Below are positions 493 to 10,006 of a DNA stretch of 64,000 nucleotides, piece by piece. A model generated the notes under the pieces. That model was given only the letters and a program-made list of their open reading frames with translations. It made no database searches and had not been told where the DNA came from. Position 1 is the first letter of the stretch, and each line of letters begins with the position of its first letter. Made by a program: the position numbers and the translations under genes. Location: positions 1-64,000 of the IMG/VR virus record IMGVR_UViG_3300046777_001715. The stretch is one strand, 5' to 3'. The stretch comes from a virus.

Positions 493-1262
493 GCTTCCAC
501 CTTTTCTGTAGATTCCAATAATACACTATGGGTCTGACATTCTTTCATAGCCTCATCATCTTGCCAAGAACCCTCATTGCATTCTGAGCAGAATTGACCA
601 CAATCATTTTCACAATACTCAACACAATCAAAAGATTGGCAAGCATAGCAACGATTCTCATATTCTAGAATAGTTTTAACATCACCACGGACAATCTCAT
701 ATTCCCCACCCCAGCCTGTTTCCTCTTCATACTCTAATGTGAGCAGGCAGTTAGGAACAAGATTACTTAGTTTAGTTAGAATAGTTACAGCAGGTGACCA
801 TGCAGTCTCATATTTATATACAAGCCAGTTATCATCACCTTCTGATTTATATTCAAGTAATTCTGTATTAGAATACTCTTCGCCGTCACGGACGGCTACA
901 TCCCATTTAGTTCCCCAGTTGGTATTATTCCATGAATACCAATCTTTAGATACTTTAGCAATTTCAATAGATTTAGCAAACCAATTAGGGTCATTTGTAT
1001 CTAGACCTGTGCGGTCAGGCTGGCAGGCATACTCCTCATCAGTAATGCCGTCATCCTTATATGAGTGGATATTAAAGAAAGCAAAGACAGGATTATTATA
1101 TTCAACCTGCTTAATTTTGGTGGGGAAGCCTGAAGAACTAATATCACCCATACCATATGTCTCTTGTGCTAATACAAATGGCTTATTCAATCTATCTTTA
1201 ATCATATCTACCTCAGACTTAGGTCCTTGGATAGTTAATGTGTTATAACACCAATTTGGCAT
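489..1262 (-). CDS. Api92/YubB ferredoxin-like (DUF1281-type) phage protein
   Basis: MPNWCYN start, W..NWGTKWD and ETAWSP motifs; AACGAAAGG RBS. Confidence 0.75.
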   Translation of the reverse strand: MPNWCYNTLTIQGPKSEVDMIKDRLNKPFVLAQETYGMGDISSSGFPTKIKQVEYNNPVFAFFNIHSYKDDGITDEEYACQPDRTGLDTNDPNWFAKSIEIAKVSKDWYSWNNTNWGTKWDVAVRDGEEYSNTELLEYKSEGDDNWLVYKYETAWSPAVTILTKLSNLVPNCLLTLEYEEETGWGGEYEIVRGDVKTILEYENRCYACQSFDCVEYCENDCGQFCSECNEGSWQDDEAMKECQTHSVLLESTEKVEA

Positions 1263-1289
1263 TTTATATCCTTTCGTTGATATGACCTA

Positions 1290-1312
1290 ATTATATATTA
1301 GAGCACTGACAA
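1290..1312 (-). promoter_or_regulatory. RecA-NDp/PafBC-type promoter
   Basis: TTGTCAGTG-CTCTAATA-TATAAT on minus strand. Confidence 0.8.
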
Positions 1313-1330
1313 ATGTCTATAGAATATCCG

Positions 1331-1346
1331 TGTGATTCACACCACA
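1331..1346. promoter_or_regulatory. CRP/GlxR-like box (1 mismatch)
   Basis: TGTGA-TTCACA-CCACA. Confidence 0.5.
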
Positions 1347-1433
1347 TGATCTCAAAGCTTGAGAATTCCTGTGAATTTACTTGACCGTCTTAAATACCTT
1401 ATGCTATCCTCAGTCTTTTGCGGGCTTCCTGGC

Positions 1434-1560
1434 AAAAAGTTGGGGCCCTAGCAGTCTCTCCTCTGCTGGGCCCCTGGCGTTTGGCTGCATCCACACTATG
1501 CATATTTAAAGACTTGGCCGAAAGGGTGACCTGATAGCCTTACCAAACTATTTATGTTGA
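1434..1560 (-). ncRNA. candidate structured small RNA
   Basis: TGn-TATAAT at 1567-1575, multi-stem fold, GC-rich terminator hairpin with U-tract, no credible ORF. Confidence 0.45.
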
Positions 1561-1579
1561 ATTTATATTATATCATATC

Positions 1580-1930
1580 CTAGTTAACTGGAATTGTTGA
1601 ACCAAGGTGATACGCAATAAACTCCTCAAAACTGTGACCGTCAATCATTTTGTTAACCATGTCGATTTCAACTGTGAAATCCCATGCTGCAAAATCAGAC
1701 GGCTTAGCAACGGCACCAATTCCAAATCCTGTTTCTTGGTCCCATTCGCTTCCAATTAATTTACTAATGATGTTACGTATAGCATATGATGTGTCTTGCC
1801 AACGTGGACGTGCATGCATTAAAGCATTAGCAATGTCTATTTGCCAATCTGTCTCGCCCCAATGACTGTACAGCCATACTGCAGGTTCTTCAGCGCCTTC
1901 GTTGAAGAGATAATTAATCCGTGCTCCCAT
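1580..1930 (-). CDS. hypothetical protein (YSHWG motif, actinophage-type)
   Basis: ORF track. Confidence 0.75.
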   Translation of the reverse strand: MGARINYLFNEGAEEPAVWLYSHWGETDWQIDIANALMHARPRWQDTSYAIRNIISKLIGSEWDQETGFGIGAVAKPSDFAAWDFTVEIDMVNKMIDGHSFEEFIAYHLGSTIPVN

Positions 1931-2114
1931 TTGTTACTTCCGCCTTTTCTGAGTTGATGATGTGTGCTAATTCTACAATCTCGTAGGACCACTTGTCAAG
2001 AGCATCTTTAAACTCATTGTAGTGGTGCCCACAAAAGAATAGGTCCCCTGCTAATCCCTTAGCTTGGTATAAAGCTTGTGCTGTTTCGCATTTGTCGCAG
2101 CCTTGCCATGTCAT
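1914..2114 (-). CDS. small zinc-binding protein (CxxC...FCGHH)
   Basis: Cys/His pattern; start reassigned to MTWQG, coupled to upstream stop. Confidence 0.65.
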   Translation of the reverse strand: MTWQGCDKCETAQALYQAKGLAGDLFFCGHHYNEFKDALDKWSYEIVELAHIINSEKAEVTNGSTD

Positions 2115-2257
2115 AGAGTTCCGCCTTCTATCATTTCCGAAAGACGATCTAAGATCCATGAGTCAATGTCAGCGATATCAATCTCTGATAACTTCTCCAT
2201 GATTTCTTCACGAGCAAACTTGTACCCGTCATCAAAACCGTCTTTATAGTCCGACAT
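2111..2257 (-). CDS. small acidic protein (48 aa, MSDYKDGFDDGY...)
   Basis: Read by hand; GGAGA RBS; fills the gap. Confidence 0.65.
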   Translation of the reverse strand: MSDYKDGFDDGYKFAREEIMEKLSEIDIADIDSWILDRLSEMIEGGTL

Positions 2258-2258
2258 T

Positions 2259-2471
2259 TTATCTCCCTGTGTATCCTGTTGCCTCGTACTCGCTTACATA
2301 TGATTCTGATAGATTATATTTATCACGAATGCGGCTTACTTTCTCAATACTACCAGTTCCAATATTGAATGTCAATGGTGTCATTGCCTGCGGGTCTAGC
2401 CCTGTGATTTGTGCATCCCAATAGGCCCTCTCCATGGAGAGCCTATCGGGAGCGGTGAGTTCAAAGTACAT
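2259..2471 (-). CDS. hypothetical protein
   Basis: ORF track. Confidence 0.7.
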   Translation of the reverse strand: MYFELTAPDRLSMERAYWDAQITGLDPQAMTPLTFNIGTGSIEKVSRIRDKYNLSESYVSEYEATGYTGR

Positions 2472-3142
2472 TATGCTTCTCTCACATGACAGATTTCAAT
2501 GTCGCCAATTTCAATACGACCTGACTGTGAATCAACATACAGATTATCTGTAACTTCATCTTCAAGGTCATTACCCCAATCAGAAAGCAAATCAATTTCC
2601 ATTGTTCCGCTAACTTCGATTGTGCAAGTAAATTCAACCTGACGTGTTAGTTCAATATCAAGCGCTTCAGCAATTGCACGTAGAGTTTCTTGGTCCTCTG
2701 ATTCTGAATATGCTTCAGTGATAATATCTTTAACTAAACTAATCTTGTTAGTTAGAACGCCGTTAGTCTTCTGAGCCTGACGAGCATTGTGTAGGTCCCA
2801 TTCAAGGCTGGAAACCTTGGCGGTTGTAAATTCAGGGTCGGAGTAACCATGAATCACCTTATATGTAACTAGTAGATTAGGATTGTATTCCACTGCAGGT
2901 GAATGCAATGCATCCGAACCAATTGTTGTTTCTTCCATTTGTTCCTCTTTCGTTGTGGTTGTAGGTTGAATTGTAGCATGCTCCACTGACACCAATGTAG
3001 TATCTCTACCACATGGGCATGTGAGCTTTGTCACACCAGATGGGAATCCAAATCCATCTGATGATGTTAGTTCAATTAAACAATCACATTCATCTGGGTC
3101 ACAGACAAACGTGTACTTACTTGACATTAATTCATTTGACAT
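2471..3142 (-). CDS. hypothetical protein with N-terminal Cys cluster; probable second in-frame start at 2938
   Basis: Leaderless ATG 7 nt after TATAAT; internal promoter and RBS before MEETT. Confidence 0.7.
   Translation of the reverse strand: MSNELMSSKYTFVCDPDECDCLIELTSSDGFGFPSGVTKLTCPCGRDTTLVSVEHATIQPTTTTKEEQMEETTIGSDALHSPAVEYNPNLLVTYKVIHGYSDPEFTTAKVSSLEWDLHNARQAQKTNGVLTNKISLVKDIITEAYSESEDQETLRAIAEALDIELTRQVEFTCTIEVSGTMEIDLLSDWGNDLEDEVTDNLYVDSQSGRIEIGDIEICHVREA
2970..2992 (-). promoter_or_regulatory. RecA-NDp/PafBC-type promoter (intragenic)
   Basis: GTGTCAGTG-GAGCATGC-TACAAT. Confidence 0.75.
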
Positions 3143-3149
3143 GCCGAGA

Positions 3150-3172
3150 ATTATACACCACCCCACTGACAT
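3150..3172 (-). promoter_or_regulatory. RecA-NDp/PafBC-type promoter (leaderless)
   Basis: ATGTCAGTG-GGGTGGTG-TATAAT-7nt-ATG. Confidence 0.8.
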
Positions 3173-3271
3173 TTACAAGGAAATCCTGTGAAATTTTTAC
3201 GTGTCCCGTATGAGCTTGGTCACATCCTCAATATATTGCGGGCGTCTCATTATGTGAAACAAATTGTCTTG

Positions 3272-3344
3272 CGATTCGTACGGGATTTGAACCCGTGATC
3301 TCTACCGTGACAGGGTAGCGCTTTAACCACTAAGCTAACGAACC
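3272..3344 (-). tRNA. tRNA-Asp (GTC)
   Basis: Cloverleaf: GGTTCGT/ACGAATC acceptor, D-arm AGCTTAGTGGTTAAAGC, anticodon arm CTACC-CTGTCAC-GGTAG, T-loop GTTCAAATC; CCA not encoded. Confidence 0.93.
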
Positions 3345-3351
3345 AAATAGA

Positions 3352-3377
3352 AACGGGGGAGATTTCTCTCCCCCGTT
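3352..3377 (-). terminator. intrinsic terminator hairpin after DUF932 gene
   Basis: AACGGGGGAGA-loop-TCTCCCCCGTT inverted repeat. Confidence 0.7.
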
Positions 3378-3388
3378 AAATCATTTAG

Positions 3389-4393
3389 TTAAAATGATTT
3401 TACTAACTTGAGAATTTTATTTTTCTCAGCAGTTAGAACAGGGTCAAATCCTGATGCACCAGCCATTAGCGATTCAGAATTGCCACGACCAGAGCGGTAG
3501 TAATCAAGGCGTTCAGTGATTGCATTAAATGCACCCCACTTTGTTCCCTTGATTGTAGAATTCGTTGGTGAATTGTGGTAAAGGTCATCAAGCAAAACAA
3601 CCTTGTTTTCCCACTTCTTCATTGCACCCTTCAAATCCTTATCAGGCTTTGGATAGATTGTCTGAATCAACTTTGAAAATTCAGCATCGGTGATTGCTTG
3701 ATTAAACAAGCCCTGAGCCTCTTTTTCAAATTCATCAAAGTATCCAAGAGCAAGACCAAGAGTCTCACGAGCAACTTGAATGCGACCTTCAACAGATTGT
3801 GTGTGGCGAATCTTGAAAGATTGCTTAGCACTCTTCATTGCAAGGTTTAGAGTATTTTGGCAAACAACACGAACAGGTGTAACCGCTGCCTGAACAGCAA
3901 CAGAACCATCGTGTGATGTCCAAACAATGAGATATAGTTTTGTCTCATCATTTGCGCCTTGTGGGTCAAGAACCATTGTGCGAGGAATATCTACAGTTCC
4001 AAACACAACTTTGCCCTTCTTAAGAGAACCAGCAGATTCCCAACGGCAATCAGCATTGGCATCGTGAATTGCATCAGCAAATGCAAATAATTCTTCATTC
4101 TGCACAGGCTTGTAACGCTTGCCAACAGTAGCAAGAACATCAGTCCCGCCATTAAATGGATTAGTGCGTAACACTAAAGAAGATTGAGAAACATCGTTAA
4201 ATGATTCTGGAATATGCTCAGTGATTGGAGACAAGCGAACATTCCAGTTGGAAAGTTTAGCCTCATCGAGCATTGTTTGAGTAGTTACATCTTCATCTTT
4301 ATTGAAGATGCGATTGGCAAGATTATGCCAAGCAGGAGCACCACGAAGCGCAAACGCAACTTCGCCATTTTCTATTTCTAGATTGTGAGCCAT
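3389..4393 (-). CDS. DUF932 family phage/plasmid protein (TIGR03299-like)
   Basis: AWH.L start, Y.PVQN, SHDGS, RVVCQNTL, RHT, GTKWGAFNA motifs. Confidence 0.9.
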   Translation of the reverse strand: MAHNLEIENGEVAFALRGAPAWHNLANRIFNKDEDVTTQTMLDEAKLSNWNVRLSPITEHIPESFNDVSQSSLVLRTNPFNGGTDVLATVGKRYKPVQNEELFAFADAIHDANADCRWESAGSLKKGKVVFGTVDIPRTMVLDPQGANDETKLYLIVWTSHDGSVAVQAAVTPVRVVCQNTLNLAMKSAKQSFKIRHTQSVEGRIQVARETLGLALGYFDEFEKEAQGLFNQAITDAEFSKLIQTIYPKPDKDLKGAMKKWENKVVLLDDLYHNSPTNSTIKGTKWGAFNAITERLDYYRSGRGNSESLMAGASGFDPVLTAEKNKILKLVKSF

Positions 4394-4423
4394 TTTTTGT
4401 CCTTTCGTTTAGTTGATTTGGCA

Positions 4424-4446
4424 ATTATAACAGGTCGCACTGACAT
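4424..4446 (-). promoter_or_regulatory. RecA-NDp/PafBC-type promoter
   Basis: ATGTCAGTG-CGACCTGT-TATAAT. Confidence 0.8.
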
Positions 4447-4483
4447 TGTCTAGATTAGTTAGTCATTTGTCCGAATTGATCCG

Positions 4484-4499
4484 TGTGAGTAATCTCACA
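4484..4499. promoter_or_regulatory. CRP/GlxR box (perfect)
   Basis: TGTGA-GTAATC-TCACA. Confidence 0.7.
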
Positions 4500-4511
4500 A
4501 ATTTTCAGGGT

Positions 4512-4541
4512 TGTGGATAACTGGTCGTAACCTGTGGATAA
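4512..4541. promoter_or_regulatory. pair of DnaA boxes
   Basis: TGTGGATAA (=TTATCCACA) at 4512 and 4533. Confidence 0.7.
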
Positions 4542-4679
4542 CCCCCGCACATAGTTGCGGGCATCTCACATTGTGAGAACGCTATCTCGATCTCAGCTGG
4601 CGGCAGCCCCGAAGGGTTGAGCAGTTTGGCGACTTGCTCAGGTCGTTCGCAATTTATCGTTATGCGAGAACGATTTTAT

Positions 4680-5096
4680 TTAGAGATACTTAGCAATTTG
4701 CTTCATAGTAGAAGCATTTACTGTTTCCTCATCTGTCATCTTGAGAATTGTTAGGGCATTTGTGATGTCCTCTTTCATCTCACGATAAGTGTGCTGATGG
4801 ATAATCTCAAAATCCTTTTCAGGCTCTTTAGGAAAATCAGTTTCCTTTGTGATGATGTCAAAATCAACATTGAGAGTGTTGTTCCATTGACGATAGTTTG
4901 TGCGAAGGTTCTCAGACTTTGCGAAGTTTGCGATAGCCCACTTGCCAATTTCTTTCTGCCACTTTTCACGGGCTTTCTGATACTTGGCTTCGTTTGCTTC
5001 TTGTGAAGCATAGTCTTTTTCTAGTGTTGCTAGGCGAGTTTCTAGTGCCTTGATTACCTTTGGTGTTGCCACCTTTACTGTGATTGCTCTACTCAT
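4680..5096 (-). CDS. hypothetical coiled-coil protein
   Basis: ORF track; AACGAAAGG RBS. Confidence 0.8.
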   Translation of the reverse strand: MSRAITVKVATPKVIKALETRLATLEKDYASQEANEAKYQKAREKWQKEIGKWAIANFAKSENLRTNYRQWNNTLNVDFDIITKETDFPKEPEKDFEIIHQHTYREMKEDITNALTILKMTDEETVNASTMKQIAKYL

Positions 5097-5127
5097 TTCT
5101 TACCTTTCGTTTGTGTGTTTGGAGAGT

Positions 5128-5150
5128 ATTTTATCAGAGGGGTCTGACAA
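5128..5150 (-). promoter_or_regulatory. RecA-NDp/PafBC-type promoter
   Basis: TTGTCAGAC-CCCTCTGA-TAAAAT. Confidence 0.75.
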
Positions 5151-5223
5151 AAAGTGTGTGAGGGTTCTTACTTACGACATTGGGCGAGGACTCCCTCTAA
5201 ACTGCCCCTGTTTCGCTAGTTAA

Positions 5224-5400
5224 TTAAACTAGAGCCGAATTGCTAACTGTTGTCCAACGAGTTTCTTTCGTTGGCATTTCCAGTAGCACTCGCACCGAGC
5301 CAGATGCGTTAGGAATAATCTCCTTGATTACTCCAGTTTTCTTTGACTTTAAGGTTGTGAATAAATCGCCAACCTTGTAAGTGTATCCATTTACTGTCAT
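5224..5400 (-). CDS. small SH3/KOW-like beta protein
   Basis: Start reassigned to MTVNG after GAAAGGAAG RBS; YKVGDL...TGVIKEI pattern. Confidence 0.65.
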   Translation of the reverse strand: MTVNGYTYKVGDLFTTLKSKKTGVIKEIIPNASGSVRVLLEMPTKETRWTTVSNSALV

Positions 5401-5426
5401 TTTGCTTCCTTTCTTGTTAGGGTAGT

Positions 5427-5449
5427 ATTTTAGCATAGGGGTCTGACAT
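5427..5449 (-). promoter_or_regulatory. RecA-NDp/PafBC-type promoter
   Basis: ATGTCAGAC-CCCTATGC-TAAAAT. Confidence 0.75.
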
Positions 5450-5466
5450 TTATCAAGCCCCTAGAG

Positions 5467-5482
5467 TGTGAGTTATCTCACA
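5467..5482. promoter_or_regulatory. CRP/GlxR box (perfect)
   Basis: TGTGA-GTTATC-TCACA, overlapping the stop codon of the 5478..5750 gene. Confidence 0.7.
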
Positions 5483-5750
5483 ATACTTCGGGCAACCAAG
5501 CGTCCAAGTGGTGGGCGTCTATAATTGCAGATGCAGGGCAAGAGGTCTTACCTTTCCAAGTAATGTCATCAGGTAGAGGTATCTCACGATCAAAATCCTC
5601 CTCATAGTATGCGTCAATAGCGTCTATGCAAGGTTGCACCATAGCAAGGGGAACGGGAGGGTAATGATTAGAGCGGAGATGAATACCAATAGCCATTTCT
5701 AAATCTAATTCTAATTCCTCAGATAAATCTAATGCTGTATTGTAACCCAT
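5478..5750 (-). CDS. hypothetical protein (HL.SNHYPPVP...HHL)
   Basis: ORF track; GGAG RBS. Confidence 0.8.
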   Translation of the reverse strand: MGYNTALDLSEELELDLEMAIGIHLRSNHYPPVPLAMVQPCIDAIDAYYEEDFDREIPLPDDITWKGKTSCPASAIIDAHHLDAWLPEVL

Positions 5751-5753
5751 TTA

Positions 5754-5960
5754 TTACTCCCCCCAACTTACTTTGGCGTATGAATTGTTTGCGTTAATCT
5801 TATCTAATGCACCAATACTATCTAATGCACCTGTAAATACGCCACTAAGTAAATCATTTAATTCTTTTTCAGAATAATTTACTAGAGCGGTTAAGACATA
5901 ATCAGGCATTGTTTTTTCATCAAAATCAACGCTGACTTTTACATTGTGTGTGAGTTTCAT
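5754..5960 (-). CDS. hypothetical protein
   Basis: ORF track; AACGAAAGGG RBS. Confidence 0.75.
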   Translation of the reverse strand: MKLTHNVKVSVDFDEKTMPDYVLTALVNYSEKELNDLLSGVFTGALDSIGALDKINANNSYAKVSWGE

Positions 5961-5984
5961 TTTTTCCCTTTCGTTATGGTCGCT

Positions 5985-6007
5985 ATTTTACACTACCCCA
6001 CCGACAT
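5985..6007 (-). promoter_or_regulatory. RecA-NDp/PafBC-type promoter
   Basis: ATGTCGGTG-GGGTAGTG-TAAAAT. Confidence 0.8.
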
Positions 6008-6022
6008 TTACAATTTCTGCAT

Positions 6023-6116
6023 CGGCGTGTCGCAGCTTTTGTGATATTTCTCACAATTCCCGTGTTTATCCACAGCCCCACTTAAACCTGTGGATAACCC
6101 CGCAAAAGACTGCGGG
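6023..6116. promoter_or_regulatory. composite cassette: GACACGCC site, CRP box, two DnaA boxes, CCCGCA palindrome
   Basis: CGGCGTGTCG 6023; TGTGA-N6-TCACA 6040-6055; TTATCCACA 6066; TGTGGATAA 6089; CCCGCAAAAGACTGCGGG 6099-6116. Confidence 0.7.
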
Positions 6117-6118
6117 CC

Positions 6119-6217
6119 TCACCTCAGCTTTGTCAACATGTAAATGACTAATAAAATTGGTGTACATAAGAATGCAATAATACCAATTGCAAACACGGTA
6201 CCAAGGAATTCATACAT
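6119..6217 (-). CDS. small membrane peptide (32 aa)
   Basis: MYEFLGTVFAIGIIAFLCTPILLVIYMLTKLR; TAATG coupling. Confidence 0.55.
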   Translation of the reverse strand: MYEFLGTVFAIGIIAFLCTPILLVIYMLTKLR

Positions 6218-6936
6218 TATTTTTTACTCGCAGAAAATCGAATGTCTGACTTACCATAAACACATAGGCCACATGAAACACATGCGGACCCTGCATTGCT
6301 AATAAGTGGAATAGACTTATTATTTTCAGGACACTTAGCACCAGGCTTTCCAGTCAATTCTTTCATTGTGCTTTCAGTTGCGGCGAATGTCTTCCCTAAA
6401 TATGCAAGGCGGATACTAGAATTTAATTTAAGGTCATGAGCAATTTCTTTATTGTCGTCATCGGTAGAATAATAAAGAGATAGATTAGAGATATCCTTAA
6501 GAATAAGCGCTGCAGACTTTACACGAGTATAAACCCAGAATTGAACATCCGCATGATCATTAATTACATTCTTCCAGGCATACGTATAGAAATCATTAAA
6601 GAAATCTCCGTCCCAGTGGATACGGAATAACATCGGTGCGTCTTTCTTTACACAATCAGCCTTGAAATCAATAATCATTTCATTAAGCAATTGATACATG
6701 GTCTCCATGTCTGCATTGCGTAGGAGCTCCCAGTTATGAAGAAGATTAGTTTTTACTCCAGGGAAGAGTTTTTCAAGCTTTCCCGCATAGCAGACGCTTT
6801 CGCACACGCTAGTGGCACCAGGACAGGAGAAAGCCTTGCCTGCAGGTAATCCAAAAGTATTAGCAATAGCGGCTTGCTTTCCATTTTTTGTGACAAGGTT
6901 AGCCACCTTTCTATCATTAGAACGTTTTAATTTCAT
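6217..6936 (-). CDS. gp88-like Fe-S (radical-SAM-related) phage protein
   Basis: CPGATSVCESVCYA, RIHWDGDF, YTR and C-terminal CxxCxxC; leaderless start MKLKRS. Confidence 0.8.
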   Translation of the reverse strand: MKLKRSNDRKVANLVTKNGKQAAIANTFGLPAGKAFSCPGATSVCESVCYAGKLEKLFPGVKTNLLHNWELLRNADMETMYQLLNEMIIDFKADCVKKDAPMLFRIHWDGDFFNDFYTYAWKNVINDHADVQFWVYTRVKSAALILKDISNLSLYYSTDDDNKEIAHDLKLNSSIRLAYLGKTFAATESTMKELTGKPGAKCPENNKSIPLISNAGSACVSCGLCVYGKSDIRFSASKK

Positions 6937-6943
6937 GGGGGTA

Positions 6944-6966
6944 ATTATAGCGGTTAGGTCTGACAT
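6944..6966 (-). promoter_or_regulatory. RecA-NDp/PafBC-type promoter (leaderless)
   Basis: ATGTCAGAC-CTAACCGC-TATAAT-7nt-ATG. Confidence 0.8.
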
Positions 6967-6967
6967 A

Positions 6968-7168
6968 TTAGTAATCCTCATCCATTCCAAATCCAGCGGA
7001 AGCAAGAGCGTCATTATCAGCCCATCCAGTTAATTCATAGAATGAAACTTCATCAGCGTCATAGCAAGAAGCACACAAGAAGTCATCCTGATAATAACCA
7101 TATTCATATGCGTCCATTAGGATATAATCAGCGCAATTATCGCCAGTGCAAAATACTTTGTATTCCAT
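6968..7168 (-). CDS. small acidic Cys protein ending ALASAGFGMDEDY
   Basis: Start reassigned to MEYKV after GAAAGG RBS. Confidence 0.7.
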   Translation of the reverse strand: MEYKVFCTGDNCADYILMDAYEYGYYQDDFLCASCYDADEVSFYELTGWADNDALASAGFGMDEDY

Positions 7169-7197
7169 TAGTTTGCCTTTCATTTGGAGAGGTTGCA

Positions 7198-7220
7198 ATT
7201 GTAGCAGAATGGACCGACAA
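7198..7220 (-). promoter_or_regulatory. RecA-NDp/PafBC-type promoter
   Basis: TTGTCGGTC-CATTCTGC-TACAAT. Confidence 0.8.
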
Positions 7221-7246
7221 AATCTAATCGAAATGCTCAAAATTCC

Positions 7247-7299
7247 TGTGATTTATACCACACTCGTAACGACACGCCCGACCCCGCAAAAGCTGCGGG
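7247..7299. promoter_or_regulatory. cassette: CRP-like box, GACACGCC site, CCCGCA palindrome
   Basis: TGTGA-TTTATA-CCACA 7247; GACACGCCC 7271; CCCGCAAAAGCTGCGGG 7283-7299. Confidence 0.6.
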
Positions 7300-7313
7300 C
7301 TTTAGTTGAAATT

Positions 7314-7433
7314 TCAATCAGTTTTATTTTTATGTTTTATTTTTCGTGTGTATTTTTTTTTATTGCGAACAGGAGTTGCGGCATTTGATCTCCGCAATTC
7401 CTGAATGCGTTTTATTTTTTCTTTTAAATTCAT
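7314..7433 (-). CDS. highly basic 39 aa peptide
   Basis: MNLKEKIKRIQELRRSNAATPVRNKKKYTRKIKHKNKTD; GAAAGG upstream. Confidence 0.6.
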   Translation of the reverse strand: MNLKEKIKRIQELRRSNAATPVRNKKKYTRKIKHKNKTD

Positions 7434-7434
7434 T

Positions 7435-7623
7435 TTATACCTTTCCAAAAATTGTGTGATAGTTGCTCGCTTCGTGAAATCTTGTTACATCAAATCGAGG
7501 ATTATCTTTTGCAAACATCTCCGCAAAATCTGTTACGACTTTAGAAAATAAAGCAGGGTGAGTTTTTGTGCTCATATAGTTTAGAATTTCTGCGGTTGCC
7601 ACATAGTCTTTTCTTGTCATCAT
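7435..7623 (-). CDS. hypothetical protein (MTRKDY...DNPRFD..RF)
   Basis: ORF track. Confidence 0.75.
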   Translation of the reverse strand: MMTRKDYVATAEILNYMSTKTHPALFSKVVTDFAEMFAKDNPRFDVTRFHEASNYHTIFGKV

Positions 7624-7823
7624 TTTACTGCCACCATTCCACTACGATAGAAAACTTTTGTATAGCATTTGCCTGAAGGCGTGTAGAGATTAACTGTTGA
7701 ATATTCGTTAGCCATTCCCCAATCGGTGAATAAGAAAAAGTTTTCCCACGCACCATATTCATTTTCATATTCAGCAGACCAATGAGGGGCGTTGCTATCA
7801 TAAGCGCAAGTTAGTTTATACAT
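7620..7823 (-). CDS. hypothetical protein
   Basis: ORF track; coupled. Confidence 0.7.
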   Translation of the reverse strand: MYKLTCAYDSNAPHWSAEYENEYGAWENFFLFTDWGMANEYSTVNLYTPSGKCYTKVFYRSGMVAVK

Positions 7824-7987
7824 TATTCATTTACCCAATCTACTGTTAATTCATCTTCAACATTTGCGATACAATCGCAAGGCTCTACATCATAAGCCAA
7901 TTCATTACCAAAGAAAATAAATCCTGCGCCACCGCATTCATCACATTCAGCAGAAACAATTTCGATTAGTTCTTTTACTTTAGCCAT
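7823..7987 (-). CDS. small Zn-ribbon protein (CDECGGAG...PCDC, 54 aa)
   Basis: Read by hand; AACGAAAGGG RBS. Confidence 0.65.
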   Translation of the reverse strand: MAKVKELIEIVSAECDECGGAGFIFFGNELAYDVEPCDCIANVEDELTVDWVNE

Positions 7988-8102
7988 TTAGGTTTTCCCT
8001 TTCGTTATTTGTTGAAATTGTAGCAGATAGCACTGACAAGGCTTCCGCTTTTGTTGCTTCACGTTGTGCGATAACGTGAGCCTTGAATTCTTCTAAATTC
8101 AT
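7980..8102 (-). CDS. small hypothetical protein (40 aa, MNLEEFKAHV...)
   Basis: TAATG coupling; contains an embedded promoter. Confidence 0.55.
   Translation of the reverse strand: MNLEEFKAHVIAQREATKAEALSVLSATISTNNERENLNG
8017..8039 (-). promoter_or_regulatory. RecA-NDp/PafBC-type promoter
   Basis: TTGTCAGTG-CTATCTGC-TACAAT. Confidence 0.8.
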
Positions 8103-8302
8103 TATTCACCAACCTTTACTGCTAAATAGCGATAAGAATCTTTGAAAGATTTGTGAGGTCTAACCTGCACAAGATAGGTATCGCAATCTGCATACCATAC
8201 CGCAGAAGTTTTTTCTGCGTCAATGATTTCACCTGTAAGGGTGCGGGAATGATAAGTCTTTCCGATAAGAAGACTTTCGACTGTATAGACATTTGCTGAC
8301 AT
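8102..8302 (-). CDS. hypothetical protein
   Basis: ORF track; GAAAGG RBS. Confidence 0.75.
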   Translation of the reverse strand: MSANVYTVESLLIGKTYHSRTLTGEIIDAEKTSAVWYADCDTYLVQVRPHKSFKDSYRYLAVKVGE

Positions 8303-8336
8303 TAGTTGTCACCTTTCTTTAGTAATTTATAGGGAG

Positions 8337-8359
8337 ATTGTATCAGTTACTACTGACAA
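8337..8359 (-). promoter_or_regulatory. RecA-NDp/PafBC-type promoter
   Basis: TTGTCAGTA-GTAACTGA-TACAAT; GACACGCC at 8370. Confidence 0.75.
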
Positions 8360-8502
8360 TTTTGGCAAGGACACGCCTTTAGAGAGAAAAGATATTTTAG
8401 CAATACCTTTTTTTCTGATACTGAAATTTCAGGGTGAAATTGTTTTACCCCACCATTTAGATATTCGTGAGAGATTTTATTTAGAGTTTTTTCAGTGAGC
8501 AT
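8350..8502 (-). CDS. small protein with C-terminal CxCxxC (50 aa)
   Basis: MLTEKTLNK...KACPCQNCQ; GAAAGGGG RBS. Confidence 0.6.
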   Translation of the reverse strand: MLTEKTLNKISHEYLNGGVKQFHPEISVSEKKVLLKYLFSLKACPCQNCQ

Positions 8503-8531
8503 TTTTGCCCCTTTCTTTTTGTTATGCTGAA

Positions 8532-8554
8532 ATTATAGCCTAAGCCACTGACAT
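8532..8554 (-). promoter_or_regulatory. RecA-NDp/PafBC-type promoter
   Basis: ATGTCAGTG-GCTTAGGC-TATAAT. Confidence 0.8.
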
Positions 8555-8602
8555 TTTTCTACTTACTAGCCAGTAATTTCATATTTTGAGACGCTCAAGC
8601 CG

Positions 8603-8711
8603 TGTGATAAATATCACAAGAATTTCAGGGTTTTCCACAGGCTGTCTTAAGGGCTGTGGATAACCCCGCAGTCTTTTGCGGGCCAGCTTGATTTTGTCAA
8701 GCCGACACGCC
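8603..8711. promoter_or_regulatory. composite cassette: CRP box, two DnaA boxes, CCCGCA palindrome, GACACGCC
   Basis: TGTGA-TAAATA-TCACA 8603; TTTTCCACA 8631; TGTGGATAA 8655; CCCGCAGTCTTTTGCGGG 8665-8682; GACACGCC 8704. Confidence 0.7.
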
Positions 8712-8715
8712 GTTA

Positions 8716-8814
8716 TTATTTAATTTTTTCTAAAAGTTTTTCTAGTTCTTTTAGTTGCTCTAGATTAAGGTGATCTAGTTGAATAGCTTTTTCAAATCCG
8801 AATTCGTCGCTCAT
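8716..8814 (-). CDS. small protein (32 aa, MSDEFGFEKAIQLDHL...)
   Basis: TAATG-coupled chain. Confidence 0.55.
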   Translation of the reverse strand: MSDEFGFEKAIQLDHLNLEQLKELEKLLEKIK

Positions 8815-8924
8815 TAATTTAACCCGTTTTCTTTTAGGTCTTTTATTACGGCGATTACTAGCGGGATAGTAACTCCCGCTAGTAGTAATTGGACGGCGGT
8901 AGTTAGTAGACGATTAGTAGTCAT
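8814..8924 (-). CDS. small membrane peptide (36 aa)
   Basis: MTTNRLLTTAVQLLLAGVTIPLVIAVIKDLKENGLN; coupled. Confidence 0.55.
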   Translation of the reverse strand: MTTNRLLTTAVQLLLAGVTIPLVIAVIKDLKENGLN

Positions 8925-9064
8925 TACTTATTCCTCTTTCTCTTGATTACTGTATAGAGTGTAGCACCTACTACCGACAAGATAATAAACGCCCACGATT
9001 GGGATACATAGAGGAAATCCCCTAGGTCAATCATTAGCCCATAGTCATTTAGTTCAATAGTCAT
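8924..9064 (-). CDS. small membrane peptide (46 aa)
   Basis: MTIELNDYG...FIILSVVGATLYTVIKRKRNK; coupled. Confidence 0.55.
   Translation of the reverse strand: MTIELNDYGLMIDLGDFLYVSQSWAFIILSVVGATLYTVIKRKRNK
8958..8980 (-). promoter_or_regulatory. RecA-NDp/PafBC-type promoter (intragenic)
   Basis: TTGTCGGTA-GTAGGTGC-TACACT. Confidence 0.7.
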
Positions 9065-9216
9065 TAGTCATTCCAATCTAGTGTTAGTTCATCTTCATCA
9101 AAAGCATCAAAAGAAATGTCTCCCTTTTGGATAGCGTCTTCCCACGCTAGGTTTTCTTCTATGCCTACATAGGCATCTGCTACATCTGCTTGAATAGTAT
9201 CCCATTTAGACATCAT
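9064..9216 (-). CDS. small acidic protein (50 aa)
   Basis: MMSKWDTIQADVAD...; coupled. Confidence 0.55.
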   Translation of the reverse strand: MMSKWDTIQADVADAYVGIEENLAWEDAIQKGDISFDAFDEDELTLDWND

Positions 9217-9389
9217 TACTTGTTATCTCCTGTCTTGATAGATTGAACATTAGCGGAAAACTTTACTTTCTTACCTAGATTGCTAGCATTTAGCGAATCT
9301 ATTAGATGGTCAATAGCCTTCATTTCGTGGGCTACATTGTCAATGCTTAGTAGGCGAGAGCCTTGCCAAATTGAATAAGTTATAGTCAT
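9216..9389 (-). CDS. small protein (57 aa, MTITYSIWQGS...)
   Basis: GAAAGG RBS; coupled. Confidence 0.6.
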   Translation of the reverse strand: MTITYSIWQGSRLLSIDNVAHEMKAIDHLIDSLNASNLGKKVKFSANVQSIKTGDNK

Positions 9390-9393
9390 TTAT

Positions 9394-9510
9394 TTACTTA
9401 CCTTTCTTATCTTGGAGAGATTTAGCATAGTCTACATCAGAGACGGCGGTAGCACCAAACTCCTCATAGATTTCTAGATAGATTTCATCATAGTATTCGT
9501 TATAGTCCAT
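9394..9510 (-). CDS. small acidic Tyr-rich protein (38 aa)
   Basis: MDYNEYYDEIYLEIYEEFG...; GAAAGG RBS. Confidence 0.55.
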   Translation of the reverse strand: MDYNEYYDEIYLEIYEEFGATAVSDVDYAKSLQDKKGK

Positions 9511-9558
9511 TATTAGACCTTCTTTCTTTTAGTTAGTTAGTTATTTAGTTATGAGAGA

Positions 9559-9581
9559 AGACTAGCAGAGTAGTCCGACAA
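9559..9581 (-). promoter_or_regulatory. RecA-NDp/PafBC-type promoter
   Basis: TTGTCGGAC-TACTCTGC-TAGTCT; GACACGC at 9591. Confidence 0.7.
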
Positions 9582-9622
9582 TTACAAGGCGACACGCTAC
9601 CCTGTGGGTGTGATTTATACCA

Positions 9623-9850
9623 CTATTCCCAAGAGCGGGTAGTAGCATAGACTACACGCTTACTAGGCTTATAGTTTTCTAATTCTTTTAGAGAACACTC
9701 TAGGATAGTGCCTCTTTCTGCTAGTAGGTCTAGCATTTCATTAGCAGAGTGTTCATCTTTTACGAGAACACCTAGACAAGTTCCAAACTCTTTAGAGAGA
9801 GGATACTCAGGGTTAGTATTGTATTCTATTTTATAACTTAGTGAGAACAT
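9623..9850 (-). CDS. hypothetical protein, first gene of the leftward block
   Basis: ORF track; GAAAGGAG RBS. Confidence 0.75.
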   Translation of the reverse strand: MFSLSYKIEYNTNPEYPLSKEFGTCLGVLVKDEHSANEMLDLLAERGTILECSLKELENYKPSKRVVYATTRSWE

Positions 9851-9886
9851 TTTGTTCTCCTTTCTTTTGTTTATCTTATGTATAGA

Positions 9887-9909
9887 ATACTAACATAGAC
9901 CACTGACAT
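9887..9909 (-). promoter_or_regulatory. RecA-NDp/PafBC-type promoter
   Basis: ATGTCAGTG-GTCTATGT-TAGTAT. Confidence 0.75.
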
Positions 9910-9924
9910 TTTGACCTGTTTTTC

Positions 9925-10006
9925 GGGCGTGTCGCAAAACTATTTTTGTGAAGTGCATCACACAGATAATGGGCGCACTATACAGTTATCCACAGCCTGT
10001 GCAAAA
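9925..10006. promoter_or_regulatory. composite cassette: GACACGCC, CRP box, two DnaA boxes
   Basis: GGGCGTGTCG 9925; TGTGA-AGTGCA-TCACA 9947; TTATCCACA 9986; TGTGCAAAA 9998. Confidence 0.7.

Follow-up and report, generated by a model that had tools for sequence, protein, structure and literature searches.

Repeated PafBC-type promoter cassettes in the small-gene arm of a freshwater relative of Streptomyces cluster BE phages

Promoters of the PafBC/RecA-NDp class, described from Mycobacterium, Streptomyces and other Actinobacteria, combine a -26 element containing GTC with a TAnnnT hexamer at a set spacing and frequently give leaderless starts (PMC8635444, PMC6789036, PMC11804915). The published motif is tGTCgg(N10)tA(N3)T; PafBC sits between the DNA and domain 4 of SigA and substitutes for the -35 contact, with PafB touching positions -23 to -28 and reading only the GTC triplet base-specifically (PMC8635444), and it is activated by single-stranded DNA (PMC11804915). 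Among phages, the middle promoters of T4 (MotA box at -30, with AsiA) likewise replace the -35 with an element near -26 to -30 beside a normal -10. The early-promoter and stem-loop elements (PeSLs) of T4-type phages are repeated between small open reading frames (ORFs) in a plastic region with mosaic junctions (PMC2839356, PMC4122927), and Streptomyces phages of cluster BE have direct terminal repeats of ~11 kb (PMC5764925). Here we describe a repeated intergenic cassette built around PafBC-type promoters in an uncultured lake phage related to cluster BE. It lies in the window, by which we mean the whole 64,000-nt stretch of DNA analyzed, bases 1-64,000 of IMG/VR record IMGVR_UViG_3300046777_001715 (106,256 bp, rated 99% complete).

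The left 10 kb of the window is a block of small leftward genes in ~16 short transcription units, and all genes from 1 to ~9.85 kb are on the minus strand. The first-pass annotation of this DNA had proposed that the gaps of this arm reuse one multi-input regulatory cassette, which is borne out by an excess of the motifs, their concentration in one arm and their arrangement in three full and five partial gaps. Against expectations from dinucleotide shuffles of the whole 64-kb window, the promoter pattern TGTCRG-N10-TANNNT has 18 matches on both strands (0.96 expected), 17 of them on the minus strand at 518-9908, and the remaining 42 kb of the genome contain only one further match. The Crp-type palindrome TGTGA-N6-YCACA is found at 8 sites (~0.5 expected), all within 1331-9962, and with an extra near-copy at 9609 there are six perfect and three near-perfect boxes. 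The DnaA box TTATCCACA occurs six times exactly (0.67 expected), all within 4512-9994, GACACGC seven times (1.9 expected), six of these at 6025-9933, and CCCGCA-N-TGCGGG four times (0 expected). Apart from one GACACGC, all Crp, DnaA, GACACGC and hairpin matches in the window are confined to the arm, which in total contains 16 credible promoters, 9 Crp-type boxes, 7 DnaA boxes, 6 GACACGC words and 4 GC (guanine-cytosine) hairpins (Table 1). One minus-strand promoter match (8280-8301), which overlaps a start codon, has probably arisen by chance.

On the coding strand, the full order of the cassette is hairpin, DnaA box, DnaA box, Crp box, (GACACGCC) and promoter, as found at 4.5, 6.0 and 8.6 kb, with partial versions at 1.3, 3.2, 7.25, 9.6 and 9.95 kb. 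An ordered cassette stands upstream of about half of the promoters. The full set is absent from those at 0.54, 2.99, 5.15, 6.96, 8.04, 8.36 and 8.98 kb, a Crp box accompanying the promoters at 2.99 and 5.45 kb and a GACACGC word the one at 8.36 kb.

Table 1. Positions of promoters, boxes and stem-loops in the left arm of the window
Feature	Position	Strand	Remark
PafBC-type promoter (TGTCAGAC-N8-TATTAT)	518..539	-	inside end of preceding gene; Shine-Dalgarno and ATG after
PafBC-type promoter	1290..1311	-	before 257-aa gene (489-1262)
Crp-type box, near-perfect (TGTGATTCACACCACA)	1331..1346	.	centre ~-55.5
PafBC-type promoter	2970..2991	-	within ORF 2471-3172, before in-frame internal Shine-Dalgarno and ATG
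Crp-type box, perfect	3020..3035	.	centre ~-64.5; inside coding sequence
PafBC-type promoter, leaderless start	3150..3171	-	ATG 7 nt after TATAAT
PafBC-type promoter of DUF932 gene (3389-4393)	4424..4445	-	conservation in text
Crp-type box, perfect	4484..4499	.	centre ~-74.5
Pair of exact DnaA boxes TTATCCACA	4512..4541	-	4512-4520, 4533-4541
GC stem-loop (CCCGCA/TGCGGG)	4544..4561	.	abuts DnaA box
PafBC-type promoter of 138-aa gene (4680-5096)	5128..5149	-	
PafBC-type promoter	5427..5448	-	
Crp-type box, perfect	5467..5482	.	centre ~-54.5
PafBC-type promoter (TGTCGGTG)	5985..6006	-	
GACACGCC word	6024..6031	-	within GCGACACGCC
Crp-type box, perfect	6040..6055	.	centre ~-69.5, sole off-phase class
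Inverted pair of exact DnaA boxes	6066..6097	.	6066-6074 (+), 6089-6097 (-)
GC stem-loop	6099..6116	.	abuts DnaA box
PafBC-type promoter, leaderless start, GP88-family gene	6944..6965	-	true start ~6936
PafBC-type promoter	7198..7219	-	
Partial cassette	7247..7299	.	near-perfect Crp box 7247-7262, GACACGCC 7271-7278, GC stem-loop 7283-7299
PafBC-type promoter	8017..8038	-	
PafBC-type promoter and GACACGC word just upstream	8337..8376	-	promoter 8337-8358, word 8370-8376
PafBC-type promoter	8532..8553	-	
Full cassette (8603-8711), Crp and DnaA boxes	8603..8663	.	perfect Crp box 8603-8618; DnaA boxes 8631-8639 (TTTTCCACA), 8655-8663
Full cassette (8603-8711), stem-loop and GACACGCC	8665..8711	.	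GC stem-loop 8665-8682; GACACGCC 8704-8711
PafBC-type promoter (TGTCGGTA)	8958..8979	-	
PafBC-type promoter, GACACGC and Crp-like box	9559..9624	-	promoter 9559-9580, GACACGC 9591-9597, Crp-like box 9609-9624
Outermost cassette, divergence point	9887..9994	.	promoter 9887-9908 (-), GACACGCC 9926-9933, perfect Crp box 9947-9962, DnaA box 9986-9994

The phage promoters comprise a -26 element with GTC (TGTCRGTG), 8 nt and TAnnnT, often with an extended -10 (TGn). They match the PafBC consensus in sequence and spacing, and 16 are placed before genes. The start codon follows 7-40 nt downstream on the coding strand, usually preceded by an AAAGGA-type Shine-Dalgarno sequence. Two promoters (3171 and 6965) appear to give leaderless starts with the ATG 7 nt after the hexamer, and the one from 6965 agrees with the start of the Pfam GP88 match. 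Judged by architecture, spacing and the dialect used by candidate hosts (see below), the assignment of these promoters to the PafBC class is supported, and at the level of sequence we regard the array and its PafBC-class architecture as solid. Their likeness to the described class extends to the GTC element, its spacing, the TAnnnT hexamer and the leaderless starts, but the phage has 16 copies before genes unrelated to repair, and these copies have no SOS box, carry Crp and DnaA boxes upstream and in about half of the cases have a weak -35-like hexamer. Reading them as ordinary sigma-70 promoters leaves the invariant 8-mer inside the spacer unexplained. The T4 middle promoters depend on a phage-encoded adaptor, whereas none was found here by Pfam and the element is identical to the host PafBC box. 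By the same search the phage has no WYL, Crp-type helix-turn-helix, sigma-70 region 2 or DnaA C-terminal domain, and 20 small proteins from the early arm and neighbouring region show no DNA-binding domain, though this negative is a weak one.

Relatives retain the motifs in their orthologous gaps, the comparison on which the first-pass annotation had staked its cassette. Relatives were collected by an IMG/VR scan with the DUF932 protein, and the best 80 of 245 contigs (89-94% identity, 907 kb) were fetched. Across these 80, matches to the promoter pattern total 1091 on the coding strand and 2 on the opposite one. There are 418 perfect Crp boxes (~5 per contig), and TTATCCACA is present in 269 coding-strand copies and 85 copies on the opposite strand (3-4 per contig). 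GACACGC reads mainly as GCGTGTC along the coding strand (381 vs 107). Positions are fixed, with Crp centres 25-60 nt and DnaA boxes 55-135 nt upstream of TGTC. In the gap before the DUF932 gene, 64 unique orthologous sequences were compared by identity to the window: the half-sites of the Crp box reach 0.98-1.0 against 0.70 for its centre, the first DnaA box 0.98 against 0.70 for the inter-box spacer, the -26 element 0.94 against 0.68 for the N8 spacer, and the Shine-Dalgarno sequence 0.95 against 0.56 for the leader. With the -10 hexamer at 0.89, motifs range over 0.89-1.0 and spacers over 0.56-0.70. The orientation of the second DnaA box varies (inverted in 40 of the 64 orthologues, direct in 16), its 9-mer being kept. 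This gap is a clear footprint, indicating that the motifs are selected. The earlier statement that the spacers diverge holds insofar as motifs are better conserved than spacers, but the linkers GGTTTACG and CCCTGAAA are partly kept between copies. In an IMG/VR pattern scan, contigs with several TGTCAGTG-N8-TATAAT sites were nearly all kin of the phage.

The GC palindrome had been listed in the first pass as one part of the cassette; as a binding site it is not supported. Of the 96 unique 26-mers found ahead of the first DnaA box, 79 can form a stem of 5 bp or more, and the two arms change together (CCCGCA/TGCGGG, CCCCCA/TGGGGG, CCCCTA/TAGGGG). These compensatory changes argue that the element is conserved as a structure, a hairpin, and not as a sequence-specific site. 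We tentatively regard it as a terminator-like insulator or a 3'-end hairpin, with low certainty.

Taking the start site as 7 nt after the -10 hexamer, Crp-box centres fall at -54.5, -64.5, -74.5 and -84.5, plus one class at -69.5, and in the window 8 of 9 sites are within 1 bp of one phase. This 10-bp phasing fits a face-specific regulator. The Crp assignment draws support from the palindrome, the phasing and the recognition helix of a candidate-host Crp, but not from the candidate host genomes, where the word is not enriched. That of the DnaA boxes is supported by the excess of exact 9-mers and by the same box in candidate hosts where oriC is expected; both readings are plausible. Pairs of exact 9-mers lie ~two helical turns apart, each pair abutting a hairpin, and in relatives a group of 3-4 closely spaced boxes also occurs in another sequence context. 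The GACAC sites had been attributed to WhiA. Although WhiA is encoded in the candidate hosts (five genomes searched), the recurring word is longer, an 8-10-mer (GCGACACGCC), and is not enriched in those genomes; this attribution is not supported. In several candidate hosts the recA promoter has GCGACAC(G/A)CC ~5 nt ahead of its TGTCAGTG element and an SOS box after it (L324, L303; G393:C1:913932-913972), and the phage GACACGCC word may thus be the site of another factor that also acts at host recA, rather than of WhiA.

The PafBC motif was present in 368 of 401 genomes sampled from the class Actinomycetes, a tally that includes the unpublished genomes G268, G378, G012, G041, G035, G048, G037, G029, G020 and G309, none of which underlies any specific conclusion here. 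Among 29 small genomes of this class (1.0-1.5 Mb; many single contigs, local GC 0.44-0.50), 25 have TGTC(A/G)GTG-N8-TAnnnT, mostly as TGTCAGTG, which is the phage dialect, with controls near zero. These genomes are consistent with 'Ca. Nanopelagicales'. We call them candidate hosts on size and composition only, the features from which we infer host identity. In them the motif stands before recA and a LysM gene resembling mycobacterial ChiZ, both with an SOS box, and before carD, Rce1-like/Abi-family proteases and others, many of the starts being leaderless. The five candidate hosts searched have adjacent WYL-domain genes (300-340 aa), pafB/pafC-like, and one Crp each; that of G254 matches the Crp of M. 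tuberculosis with E 7e-77 and has an identical GASRETVNKALADFA recognition helix. Candidate-host chromosomes have exact TTATCCACA boxes ~1.46 kb from their start and at their end, the expected location of oriC. Given the pafB/pafC-like pair, Crp and these boxes, cognate factors for three of the four regulators assigned in the first pass are available in a plausible host. Two Streptomyces genomes, reached via a 64-residue WhiB fragment in a PDB search, have 9 and 19 copies of TGTCGGTG-N8-TAnnnT (0-1 in the control).

The phage has a GC content of ~38% and genes typical of tailed phages (portal, prohead protease, tail), as well as DnaB, DnaG, DNA polymerase III alpha, RecA and RuvC for replication and recombination. 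It also encodes a WhiB protein, and a whiB gene is a mark of phages of actinobacteria. Megablast against cultured phages gave no match. The nearest cultured kin by protein identity are the Streptomyces cluster BE phages (Stanwilliamsviridae), with portal ~60% and DUF932 protein ~51% identical, and the freshwater group to which the phage belongs, 245 related contigs in IMG/VR, is abundant in lakes. Records of cluster BE phages each have two matches to the DUF932 gene. Together with their published terminal repeats, this indicates that the left arm of the window corresponds to their terminal-repeat arm. In one of them, NootNoot (NC_042009), that arm likewise consists of ~10 kb of small leftward genes with gaps of 100-400 bp, and the gaps contain, as here, a GC hairpin, a palindrome and a TGTC-N12-TAnnnT promoter. 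The words themselves differ from those of the window (TGTCC[CT], TAGACT and TGTCCGG-N-CCGGACA), the promoter pattern TGTC[CT][CT]-N10-TAGA[CG]T occurs in 7 copies (0.015 expected), and neither Crp nor DnaA boxes were found in the arm. A distant relative (G001, GC 37.6%), with portal 49% and major capsid 37% identical, stands further from the phage than the Streptomyces phages do (portal 60%). It has eight promoters of the phage type, preceded by a hairpin, TGTGGATAAC, ATAAC/GATAAC repeats and GACACACCC, and shares promoter, DnaA box and GACAC word with the phage. Geometry and GTC triplet are therefore common to the family, while the other letters of the -26 element and the upstream words are specific to lineages, a pattern that favours host read-out of the -26 element.

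The arm is mosaic: the number of relatives that share a given segment ranges from none to all 80. Of the ends of BLAST alignments to relatives, 66% are located in cassette gaps, whose length would predict 31%, and in the DUF932 gap homology ends just upstream of the hairpin. These traits resemble those of T4-type PeSLs, to which the cassettes have no sequence relation: the promoters are of PafBC type here and of sigma-70 early type there, and the cassettes have extra boxes of transcription-factor type and a stem-loop with no U-tract. We suggest that the cassettes act as PeSL-type borders of swapped modules, an analogy and not a homology.

The explanation that we favour, at slightly better than even confidence, is that cassettes read by host PafBC, Crp and DnaA drive early genes and double as recombination joints. 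The small genes of the arm would be early or host-takeover genes, and the cassettes would be read by host proteins. RNA polymerase with SigA and PafBC, the latter activated by single-stranded DNA, would fire the promoters, host Crp would modulate them from phased upstream positions, and host DnaA bound to its 9-mers would add another input to transcription or serve in replication. The stem-loop would insulate or end the upstream unit, and the repeated cassettes would serve in module swapping as the PeSLs do in T4-type phages. In this way, the phage probably ties its early genes to the alarm and growth signals of its host.

Several observations weigh against this explanation. About half of the promoters have a 4-5/6 match to TTGACA (TTGTAA, TAGACA) at 17-18 bp, the rest having no -35, and the -10 is extended in 10 of 16; such weak -35-like hexamers and extended -10 elements suggest that basal SigA transcription is possible in the absence of PafBC, whose need for single-stranded DNA is moreover awkward for the very first genes expressed. 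The phasing of the Crp boxes is based on about nine independent positions, six candidate host genomes contain one perfect Crp box with one-mismatch counts equal to the control, and GCGACACGCC is not enriched in them. No U-tract follows the stem-loop on the coding strand, as an intrinsic terminator has, and a canonical terminator is present elsewhere in the arm (3377-3352). The link between phage and host is weak, the phage tRNA-Asp being just 80% identical over 59 nt to a candidate-host tRNA. In kin, the slot of the Crp box is occupied by other words, the ATAAC/GATAAC repeats in G001 and the TGTCCGG-N-CCGGACA palindrome in NootNoot, which also fits phage-encoded binders co-evolving with their sites.

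That last point leads to the possibility, unlikely in our view, that the sites are read by phage-encoded or virion-delivered factors, an activator at the -26 TGTC comparable to MotA/AsiA of T4 and a dimeric regulator at the palindrome, with the likeness to PafBC and Crp sites being mimicry or coincidence. The TGTC element keeps a constant distance to the -10 across the family yet has lineage dialects (TGTCAGTG here, TGTCC[CT] in NootNoot, where the Streptomyces host's own motif is TGTCGGTG), the palindrome slot varies between lineages, and most early-arm proteins have no known domain by Pfam. However, the Pfam searches gave no WYL, sigma or Crp-type domain in the phage, the 8-mer and its spacing equal those of the candidate hosts' own PafBC promoters, both dialects retain the GTC triplet that is the only base-specific readout of PafB, and a factor for the first genes would need to be packaged in the virion. 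It is quite unlikely that the hairpin and DnaA-box units are instead replication elements (DnaA-dependent origins, helicase-loading sites or datA-like titration sites) with promoters adjacent for the reason that transcription activates an origin. Such a role would suit a phage with DnaB, DnaG, DNA polymerase III alpha and RecA, in which no recognizable initiator was found, and it would suit the spacing of the 9-mer pairs against their hairpins, the separate box cluster of relatives and the flexible box orientation. The units are nevertheless dispersed in 3-4 copies, always in fixed order with a Crp box and a promoter, there is no consistently adjacent AT-rich unwinding element, and DnaA-like boxes just upstream of some host PafBC promoters point to transcription.

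The cassettes could also be mainly mobile promoter-terminator joints, PeSL-like, that recur by duplication and recombination with the 'sites' hitch-hiking. The linkers common to copies, the mosaic gene content between cassettes, the concentration of alignment ends in the gaps and the break of homology just upstream of the hairpin are all in keeping with this. We nonetheless consider it very unlikely, given that motifs are clearly better conserved than spacers, that the DnaA box flips orientation and retains its 9-mer, that the same words recur in the relative with 49% portal identity, whose cassettes are otherwise different, and that the words match sites of factors present in candidate hosts. 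Finally, the first-pass annotation had suggested either that the array gates commitment to lysis or that it acts as a sponge for master regulators. Both ideas are speculation. That the array is a decoy, binding up PafBC, Crp and DnaA during multiplication of the phage genome and so disabling host responses, is highly improbable; it would account for the density of perfect Crp boxes (6 in 10 kb compared with 1 in ~8 Mb of candidate host genomes), but all promoters are positioned to drive genes, the Crp boxes keep phase with them and there are just ~7-16 sites per genome. The near absence of perfect Crp boxes in hosts fits unusually strong phage sites and proves neither lysis gating nor a sponge.

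Returning to cassettes read by host proteins, the scheme may extend to a whole lineage of ~100-130-kb actinophages comprising the lake group and Streptomyces cluster BE, in which small genes of the terminal-repeat arm would be under host PafBC alarm promoters, with Crp and DnaA as plug-in co-inputs that differ by host lineage. We propose this tentatively, at somewhat less than an even chance. If it is correct, the signal by which a cell turns on genes for repair, and probably for defence, would also switch on the takeover genes of the phage. If PafBC drives the promoters, this would be the first phage regulon based on 'sigma adaptation' that we found in the literature, with the host single-stranded-DNA sensor serving as the phage start signal. 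Our survey of publications on PafBC/RecA-NDp and phage, cluster BE, Stanwilliamsviridae and freshwater actinophages, the coverage of which is incomplete, found no such phage promoters or cassettes, nor any description of NootNoot's own repeated cassette (L092, 1-10 kb). PafBC has reportedly been linked to mycobacteriophage resistance in one paper, as cited elsewhere. The candidate-host PafBC promoters that precede Abi-type protease genes and other non-repair genes suggest that phage and host may compete for the same switch. The relatives that infect Streptomyces are culturable and make the idea directly testable, and the cassettes would offer natural, compact, multi-input promoters for actinobacteria.

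Proteins of the phage were also considered as leads to its host. A scan of genome contigs with the single WhiB protein gave nothing. All homologues of the phage WhiB are phage-type proteins on metagenome contigs, and neither RecA, DnaE nor ribonucleotide reductase of the phage is specifically actinobacterial. Within the candidate host G145, 8 of 9 PafBC-type promoters lie in one ~45 kb stretch (G145:C1:443-490 kb; also G300, G100 and G254), before Rce1-like/Abi-family proteases, a trypsin-like peptidase and proteins of unknown function. This stretch may be a PafBC-controlled damage or defence island. An HD-domain protein stands behind a PafBC-type promoter in another small genome (G074).

Some further features of the arm deserve mention. 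A candidate small RNA at ~1425-1555 (minus strand), in a gap of 317 nt, has an extended -10 promoter (TGATATAAT) and a hairpin with an 8-nt loop, ACCCUUUC, complementary to the GAAAGGG Shine-Dalgarno leader shared by early genes, followed by a strong GC stem and a U-tract; its fold z-score is just -1.7, and the underlying DNA is common to almost none of the 80 fetched relatives at that position. An Rfam scan gave tRNA only, and a tRNA-Asp (GTC) lies within 3271-3377, directly after the canonical terminator that follows the DUF932 gene. The 233-aa ORF 2471-3172 (minus strand) probably has a leaderless start at ~3142 and contains an in-frame internal Shine-Dalgarno sequence and ATG at ~2941. With a promoter (2970-2991) and a Crp box (3020-3035) also inside it, this ORF therefore represents either two fused genes or a gene with a shorter second product. 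Among the few early-arm proteins with a recognizable domain are a small protein at 1914-2159 (minus strand) that matches DUF7455 (E 4e-11) and the protein at 489-1262, which has an Api92-like ferredoxin-like domain (DUF1281_C).

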